Shown here: positions 21,928 to 22,620 of the stretch, piece by piece
Layout of the letters: the number at the start of each line of letters is the position of its first letter
Position numbering within the stretch: the stretch's first letter is position 1
Source: Escherichia coli
GTDB lineage: Bacteria > Pseudomonadota > Gammaproteobacteria > Enterobacterales > Enterobacteriaceae
NCBI RefSeq assembly: GCF_050920415.1
Contig: NZ_CP169309.1
Direction: 5' to 3' (one strand)
Length of the DNA stretch: 64,000 nucleotides
Position numbers and translations under genes: made by a program
Notes under the pieces: model-generated
Databases searched by the model: none
What the model was told of the DNA's origin: nothing
The model's input: the letters and a program-made list of their open reading frames with translations, nothing else

Positions 21928-22003
21928 GTATGTCGTACCTGTTTTTGGAATTCTTCCGCAATAGCTTCATGCAGACTACCTGTAGTGAGGGAAGCTGCTA
22001 AGA

Positions 22004-22050
22004 ACACTATATATAGGGGGTATGTTTGGGATTCACTGCAAGATAGTGTG
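22004..22050. promoter_or_regulatory. Candidate NrdR boxes in the nrdAB promoter
   Basis: acactatatatag (22004-22016) and cactgcaagatagtg (about 22034-22048) resemble the palindromic NrdR box (acaCwAtATaTwGtgt), about 80-120 nt upstream of the nrdA start. Confidence 0.5.
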
Positions 22051-22079
22051 AAAATGGCCCTCTTGCAAGTGCATAACTT

Positions 22080-22088
22080 TGTGGATAA
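22080..22088. promoter_or_regulatory. DnaA box upstream of nrdA
   Basis: tgtggataa is the reverse complement of the DnaA-box consensus TTATCCACA; DnaA boxes are known at nrdAB. Confidence 0.6.
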
Positions 22089-22620
22089 CTCAGGAAGGAA
22101 AAAGTGGCTTTCGCGCACCTTAGGTCAGACAAGGTGTCCGGGAAAGTCAATGGGAAGAGAAAAATTTGTTAAAAATAACTGTTCGGCGATTTCTTGAACG
22201 GCAGAATAGTATGGGTAAATTGATATAGATGGTTTATTAATCTTGTTGCTAATGATTGCCAAAATTGATCTAAGCACGAGTCATCACATAATCTGATGTA
22301 TCAGCTGTGGTCAATATATAAGCGAATGTAAGCGATTGTTGAGTCGAAATGGTTGTTTTATATTCGTTTGTTGTTAAATACCAAGCCAATTTGTTACTTT
22401 TGCATATATTATAAGAATATTATTTATTACTTTAATTCAGTTTAAATATAACCGATTTACCTTAAGGTTATTAATTTGAATTATGATACACTGATATTAT
22501 TCATCAAGTAATAACAAAATAGTCATTGCACCGAGTTATACAATTTACAAAAGAAAGATACCCCATATCACATAATGCGATTAAATACGCCTTCTCATAG
22601 AAAAGGATGGTTAGGGTAAT

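Follow-up and report, generated by a model that had tools for sequence, protein, structure and literature searches.

The region examined here is the leader and promoter of the ribonucleotide reductase operon in a 64,000-nucleotide stretch of Escherichia coli DNA, which was analyzed as a whole and is called the window below. The gene nrdA is followed by nrdB and yfaE, and its opposite flank is occupied by ubiG and gyrA. Because nrdA is encoded on the minus strand, the promoter features have to be read on that strand, in front of the ATG at 21927. A 721-bp segment surrounding the site matches E. coli genomes, with 100% identity to strain MFDS1022581, and a match covering at least 80% of this query was found in 5423 of 5426 complete E. 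coli genomes. The original prediction had described an nrdAB promoter region upstream of nrdA with two NrdR boxes and one DnaA box. The placement is correct, and the three strings on which it was based are present where they had been reported, 77-161 bp before the nrdA ATG and on the strand opposite nrdA. The features of the locus, including the predicted NrdR boxes 46-124 bp upstream of the ATG, are summarized in Table 1.

Table 1. Features of the nrdA promoter region in the window. Positions relative to the transcription start refer to the predicted +1; bits and ranks refer to the NrdR matrix scan of the window.
Feature	Positions	Strand	Remarks
Regulated gene nrdA, coding sequence of 761 aa	19642-21927	-	ATG at 21927
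Remainder of the nrdA leader; Shine-Dalgarno region ACAGGTA	21928-21972	-	
NrdR box 2, TCACTACAGGTAGTCT (K-12: GTACTACAGGTAGTCT)	21973-21988	-	11.2 bits, rank 2; about +46 to +61
Linker from box 1 to box 2, 15 bp	21989-22003	-	One SNP relative to K-12
NrdR box 1, CCCCTATATATAGTGT	22004-22019	-	18.0 bits, rank 1; about +15 to +30; core 6/6
Transcription start region	22031-22039	-	+1 predicted at A22033 by promoter geometry
NrdR "box 0", TCACACTATCTTGCAG	22036-22051	-	7.4 bits, rank 14; classical prediction, no high-affinity site
-10 hexamer TATCTT	22040-22045	-	17-bp spacer; within box 0
-35 hexamer TTGCAA, predicted sigma-70 nrdA promoter	22063-22068	-	
DnaA box B, TTATGCACT	22068-22076	-	3 bp after box A
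DnaA box A, TTATCCACA	22080-22088	-	Perfect consensus; about -55 to -47; plus strand reads TGTGGATAA
Conserved upstream block, AT-rich stretch and CCCATTGACTTTCC	22110-22200	-	About -77 to -167; identical to K-12

The surroundings of the promoter showed some peculiarities. The spacer between nrdA and nrdB (19577-19641) is 65 bp long and contains one REP-like palindrome; its length is 145 bp in strain MFDS1022581, which does not differ otherwise, so that the window does not stem from that strain itself. In K-12, the spacer measures 233 bp and carries the annotated small ORF yoaM. On the plus strand, a 327-aa ORF (22621-23604) occupies the place of the 1250-aa autotransporter gene yfaL of K-12, and the nearest genome annotates the ORF at this position as an incomplete pseudogene without its C-terminus. 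The shortened ORF indicates that about 2.8 kb are absent before ubiG. An annotated 47-aa ORF, ypaB (22054-22197, plus strand), starts between the -10 and -35 elements of the nrdA promoter (nrdAp) on the opposite strand, and crosses the -35 hexamer as well as both DnaA boxes. It may be an annotation artefact.

The two promoter hexamers agree with the sigma-70 consensus in 8 of 12 positions. Due to this weak match, a generic sigma-70 scan misses the promoter, and nrdAp was not called when 21900-22650 was searched. The same scan returned five hits in the AT-rich upstream region, which were discounted because their number lies within the shuffle expectation (3.7 ± 1.9). Both hexamers are invariant in the alignment of 10 genera that share the E. 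coli promoter architecture (type I, defined below), and the pattern TTGC[ACT]A-17 bp-TAT[CT]TT was present in all 24 strict type I matches among related genera. The conserved block further upstream is retained in E. albertii and Pseudocitrobacter, as judged from the alignment, and is presumably where the activating elements known from the literature (Fis, IciA, and AT-rich) are located. The predicted +1 gives a leader of 106 nt with the ATG at +107. This geometric start is situated 3-4 nt downstream of the start implied by the literature, in which box 0 is placed over the -10 region and the start site (PMC12176259; bioRxiv 10.64898/2026.05.11.724285). The published start thus falls inside box 0 or at its edge.

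A single consensus DnaA box had been predicted about 30 bp from the second of two palindromes. This box is genuine and the gap measures 31 bp, but the box is only half of a double box, whose other half, TTATGCACT, had been overlooked. With respect to TTATNCACA, TTATCCACA is perfect and TTATGCACT agrees in 8 of 9 positions, and the last T of box B is at the same time the first base of the -35 hexamer. Read on the nrdA strand (22067-22089), the double box is gTTATCCACAaagTTATGCACTt, and the corresponding 23-mer, GTTATCCACAAAGTTATGCACTT, is the same as the one listed for nrdA in Table 1 of a DnaA ChIP-seq study of K-12 (PMC11317965). The nrdA peak at the identical 23-mer was 14-fold over the control in that study, and earlier work cited therein found that mutation of either half disrupts DnaA binding (PMC11317965). 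Within the window, the consensus TTATCCACA occurs twice (0.37 expected), and the exact double box TTATNCAC-N4-TTATNCAC was found once, compared to no occurrence in 200 Markov simulations. The nrdA pair, with its 3-bp spacing, is the sole pair of DnaA boxes in the window with the same orientation and a spacing of 2-3 bp. Furthermore, TTATCCACA is invariant in all 10 aligned type I genera.

Reviews mention a third, ATP-DnaA-specific box at nrdA. Between 21928 and 22300, the only other DnaA-like 9-mers with at most two mismatches were TTACCCATA (22210-22218) and TTAGCAACA (22244-22252), both far upstream. The second perfect TTATCCACA of the window (32768-32776, minus strand) lies inside a gene of the alpha-2-macroglobulin family (yfaS region), and TTATTCACA was found at 24623-24631 (minus strand) in the 146-bp divergent intergenic region between ubiG and gyrA. 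Neither of these two has a partner box.

For the NrdR sites, a scoring matrix was derived solely from the four boxes of E. coli nrdHIEF and nrdDG (oligonucleotides of PMC12176259), and 63,985 positions of the window were scanned. The published core of the 16-bp, partly palindromic box consists of C4, A6, A8, T9, T11, and G13. Five of these six positions are matched by box 2, which has G at position 9, and likewise by box 0, in which C replaces A at position 6. Box 1 and box 2 are separated by a linker of 15 bp and box 0 and box 1 by one of 16 bp, and the published requirement is 15-16 bp (PMC12176259; bioRxiv 10.64898/2026.05.11.724285). When at least 11 of 12 core positions and a linker of 15 or 16 bp were demanded, box 1+2 and box 0+1 were the only pairs in 64 kb; simulations at this cut-off gave a mean of 0.7 strand-counted hits by chance, or about 0.35 sites per 64 kb. 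The best pair score was that of box 1+2 (29.2 bits), followed by box 0+1 (25.4 bits), and the next pair anywhere in the window reached 7.5 bits. The box centres (22043.5, 22011.5, and 21980.5) are spaced by 32 and 31 bp, which places all three boxes on one face of the helix. The nrdR gene itself should lie at another place on the E. coli chromosome.

On the plus strand, the two palindromes initially taken for NrdR boxes are ACACTATATATAG (22004-22016) and CACTGCAAGATAGTG (22034-22048). The first is the core of box 1, the strongest box of the whole window. The second corresponds to box 0, reportedly the classical box of Rodionov and Gelfand from 2005 and of Torrents from 2007, and it is this assignment that is outdated in view of the K-12 affinities given below. 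The actual partner of box 1 is box 2, which starts 2 bp beyond the interval that had been delimited (21990-22095). In the register first proposed for the second palindrome (22034-22049), the matrix score was -7.3 bits, and the arms comprise only 4 bp. The adjacent register (22035-22050) scored -28.3 bits, and the sequence is box-like only at 22036-22051.

The short arms of the second palindrome in that register would also suit the assumption that the palindromes arose by chance, or specify a fold of the nrdA leader RNA, and are not protein-binding sites on the DNA. This assumption is effectively refuted by the matrix scan, in which boxes 1 and 2 are the two top hits in 64 kb, by the conservation of box 1 in 80 of 80 upstream regions, and by the fold of the leader, which is no better than that of shuffled sequences (z = +0.72). 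An Rfam search of 17000-25000 at E <= 1 gave no match to the promoter, only sub-threshold hits to the REP-like family naRNA4. These lie at 18147-18214, 23797-23840, and 19601-19674, score 25-35 bits compared to a gathering score of 59.5, and are of a kind typical for REP elements in intergenic spacers.

The alignment with MG1655 revealed identity from about -170 to +30 except for one position in the spacer between the -35 and -10 hexamers, which is C in the window and T in K-12. In the leader, the differences from K-12 to the window comprise one SNP in the linker, which has T in the window, a change from GT to TC at positions 1-2 of box 2, a change from A to G further downstream, and one A less. 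All of them fall outside the conserved core positions, and relative to the 57-bp K-12 probe, which spans box 1, the linker, and box 2, the window differs at three non-core positions. Because of this near-identity, the experimental results obtained with K-12 can be transferred almost base for base.

In E. coli, the segment 21973-22003 is polymorphic at one base of the linker and at the first two positions of box 2. Among 5426 complete genomes, the 57-bp haplotype of the window (TC allele) was found exactly in 1013 and that of K-12 (GT allele) in 3370, and the "GC" allele of the GTDB representative of E. coli in none. About 1000 complete genomes carry other 57-bp haplotypes. The three box 2 alleles score 11.2-11.3 bits, with the variation outside the conserved core, and are expected not to differ in function.

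With K-12 DNA, NrdR loaded with ATP and dATP bound box 1+2 with a KD of about 113 nM, whereas the KD for box 0+1 was >6000 nM (PMC12176259). In older gel shifts of a 185-bp fragment, mutation of box 0 was without effect, but no binding remained when box 1 was mutated (PMC12176259). According to a preprint of 2026, the poor performance of box 0 is due in part to the C at position 6, and the exchange C6A resulted in 10-fold better binding (bioRxiv 10.64898/2026.05.11.724285). The order of the matrix scores (box 1 > box 2 > box 0) agrees with the published binding data for K-12. Together, these data from 2025-2026 and the matrix scan support the assignment of the predicted NrdR operator to 21973-22019, wholly downstream of the start, and box 0 is primarily the -10 region and not an NrdR partner box.

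According to the classical model, NrdR binds box 0+1 across the 16-bp linker and occludes the -10 region and the start site. The model can draw on the 5/6 core of box 0 and its rank of 14 among 63,985 positions, and on box 0+1 being the second-best pair in the window. Furthermore, an upstream box 32 bp before box 1 was present in 77 of the 80 upstream regions compared, and in those of type II this box has a median of 10.6 bits and is not the -10 element. In Salmonella, nrdAB expression rises by partial derepression when the equivalent upstream box is mutated. We nevertheless regard this model as very improbable for E. coli. The affinities of the two pairs, the gel shifts of the 185-bp fragment, and the gain in binding upon restoring A at position 6 all speak against it (PMC12176259; bioRxiv 10.64898/2026.05.11.724285), and the conservation of box 0 in type I promoters is accounted for by the embedded -10 hexamer TATCTT. 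As the 16-bp linker has been kept and the Salmonella promoter is partly derepressed by mutation of the equivalent box, box 0 may still have a minor role in vivo.

In a three-box model, all boxes would act together, and the tetramer on box 1+2 would recruit more NrdR to the weak box 0, so that repression reached the -10 element. The location of all boxes on one helical face, their positions among the top 14 matrix scores of the window, and the ability of NrdR to form higher oligomers (PMC12176259) are compatible with this three-box arrangement. It is unlikely, however, because the gel shift of the 185-bp fragment revealed no cooperative effect of box 0 (PMC12176259), and the DNA-binding form reported is a tetramer that occupies two boxes.

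Taken together, the site is very probably the known E. coli nrdAB promoter, nrdAp, a weak sigma-70 promoter with an upstream DnaA double box and a downstream NrdR operator formed by box 1 and box 2. The feature is real and already known in detail, and the interpretation given to it originally is partly supported. The NrdR matrix scan that had been suggested as a check ranked boxes 1, 2, and 0 first, second, and fourteenth, and neither low scores nor a promoter at another place were found. In view of the K-12 KD values and the gel shift with mutated box 0, the classical two-box reading is superseded for one of the two boxes.

Transcription from nrdAp would begin near 22033-22037. Following the literature, DnaA at 22068-22088 would help RNA polymerase at low occupancy, and at high levels ATP-DnaA oligomers would spread over the promoter and cause repression. 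Reviews describe the same two effects, namely that DnaA on high-affinity boxes stabilizes RNA polymerase and that high ATP-DnaA represses. Control by DnaA would couple dNTP synthesis to the initiation of replication. Box 1 and box 2 together would serve as the operator for an NrdR tetramer loaded with ATP and dATP, which would bind and repress when dATP is plentiful. With ATP alone, NrdR is expected to form oligomers that do not bind DNA, and the nrdAB operon would be derepressed. We infer that the bound tetramer may clash with the downstream footprint of RNA polymerase or block promoter escape.

The nrdA loci of 80 Enterobacterales species were compared over the 300 bp upstream. One locus (L043) had no upstream sequence and was left out, and the comparison set comprised the window and 79 loci, that is, 80 upstream regions. 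The best box in each of the 80 regions aligns with box 1 and scores 10-20 bits. A box-like sequence upstream of box 1 was found at a distance of 32 bp (16-bp linker) in 77 of the 80 regions and of 31 bp (15-bp linker) in three, and it was above the 99th percentile of the background in nearly all of them.

Two arrangements of the DnaA boxes were observed. The double DnaA box lies upstream of the -35 hexamer in 27 regions including that of E. coli (type I), whereas in 50 regions it is part of the leader and directly follows the second NrdR box (type II). The distribution is patchy inside families, with Escherichia opposed to Citrobacter and Klebsiella, and Dickeya opposed to Pectobacterium. Genera of type I include Escherichia, Pseudocitrobacter, Yersinia, Serratia, Dickeya, Brenneria, Edwardsiella, Hafnia, Budvicia, and Rahnella. 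Their promoters have the order DnaA boxes, -35, -10 inside box 0, box 1, and a CACTA half-site at the position of box 2. This left half of box 2 is at least 90% conserved across the 10 type I genera of the alignment, while a complete box 2 (>=6 bits) was found among the 80 regions only in E. coli, E. albertii, Pseudocitrobacter, and one Rouxiella. In type I, box 0 gives the impression of being conserved because it contains the -10 element. The spacing of the DnaA pair is 3 bp in Escherichia and Pseudocitrobacter compared to 12-13 bp in other type I genera (loci L035, L048, L075, and others), a difference of approximately one helical turn.

Type II was found in genera including Citrobacter, Klebsiella, Enterobacter, Kosakonia, Pantoea, Erwinia, and Pectobacterium. 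Their leaders contain, at about 80-20 nt from the ATG, TTATCCACA, 3 bp, TTA[GCT]TCACA, about 8 bp, and an inverted TGTGNATAA, that is, three DnaA boxes, which start immediately after the downstream NrdR box (box B of the NrdR pair in these promoters). An RNA hairpin formed by the inverted DnaA boxes was considered and rejected, as covariation contributed no more than -0.12 kcal/mol and the conservation of the arms is that of DnaA boxes. For the same reasons, the inverted arms are read as protein sites.

The upstream box 15-16 bp before box 1 in 80 of 80 regions suggests an ancestral operator composed of an upstream box (box 0, or box A in type II) and box 1 (or B). We tentatively propose, as a possible though doubtful course of events, that the operator has moved: the upstream box would have degraded where the -10 element lies inside it, and box 2 of the Escherichia clade would have taken over, with box 0 perhaps left as a weak auxiliary site. 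Given the location of the DnaA boxes upstream of -35 in one case and in the leader in the other, DnaA may also act differently on nrdAB in E. coli than at promoters of the Salmonella or Klebsiella type.

The promoter is among the best characterized of E. coli, and its copy in the window is unchanged at every conserved position. What is to be corrected concerns annotation, since one copied from the literature of 2005-2007 marks the wrong pair of NrdR boxes. The contrast between types I and II, which concerns other genomes and was drawn at the sequence level only, could interest those who study the coupling of replication and dNTP supply. In the two types, the DnaA boxes flank the NrdR operator on different sides, and this contrast alone might be worth following up separately.

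Compared with nrdAp of K-12, the window has the same gene and the same order of elements, and the DnaA boxes, the -35 and -10 hexamers, box 0, box 1, and the upstream block are identical. Type II promoters share with E. coli an nrdA ortholog (89-97% identity across the first 250 residues), a strong box 1, an upstream box at a distance of 16 bp, and a double DnaA box of 3-bp spacing. They differ in that the -10 element, TA[GAC]AAT, directly precedes the upstream box, which scores better there than box 0 does in type I, and in that box 2 is missing. The operators of nrdHIEF and nrdDG have in common with that of nrdAB two 16-bp, partly palindromic boxes with the same core and a 15-bp linker, and the KD values of the three are similar (113-160 nM, PMC12176259). 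The nrdAB operator deviates from them in the central AG of box 2 in place of AT, in its location wholly downstream of the start, and in a third, weak box that overlaps the -10 element. Double DnaA boxes at polA, purH, DARS1/2, datA, and nrdD (Stringer, Fitzgerald and Wade 2024) likewise combine the consensus TTATCCACA with a weaker box in the same orientation, 2-3 bp apart. Unlike at these sites, the consensus box of nrdA lies on the upstream side, and it is the weaker box that merges with the -35 hexamer.
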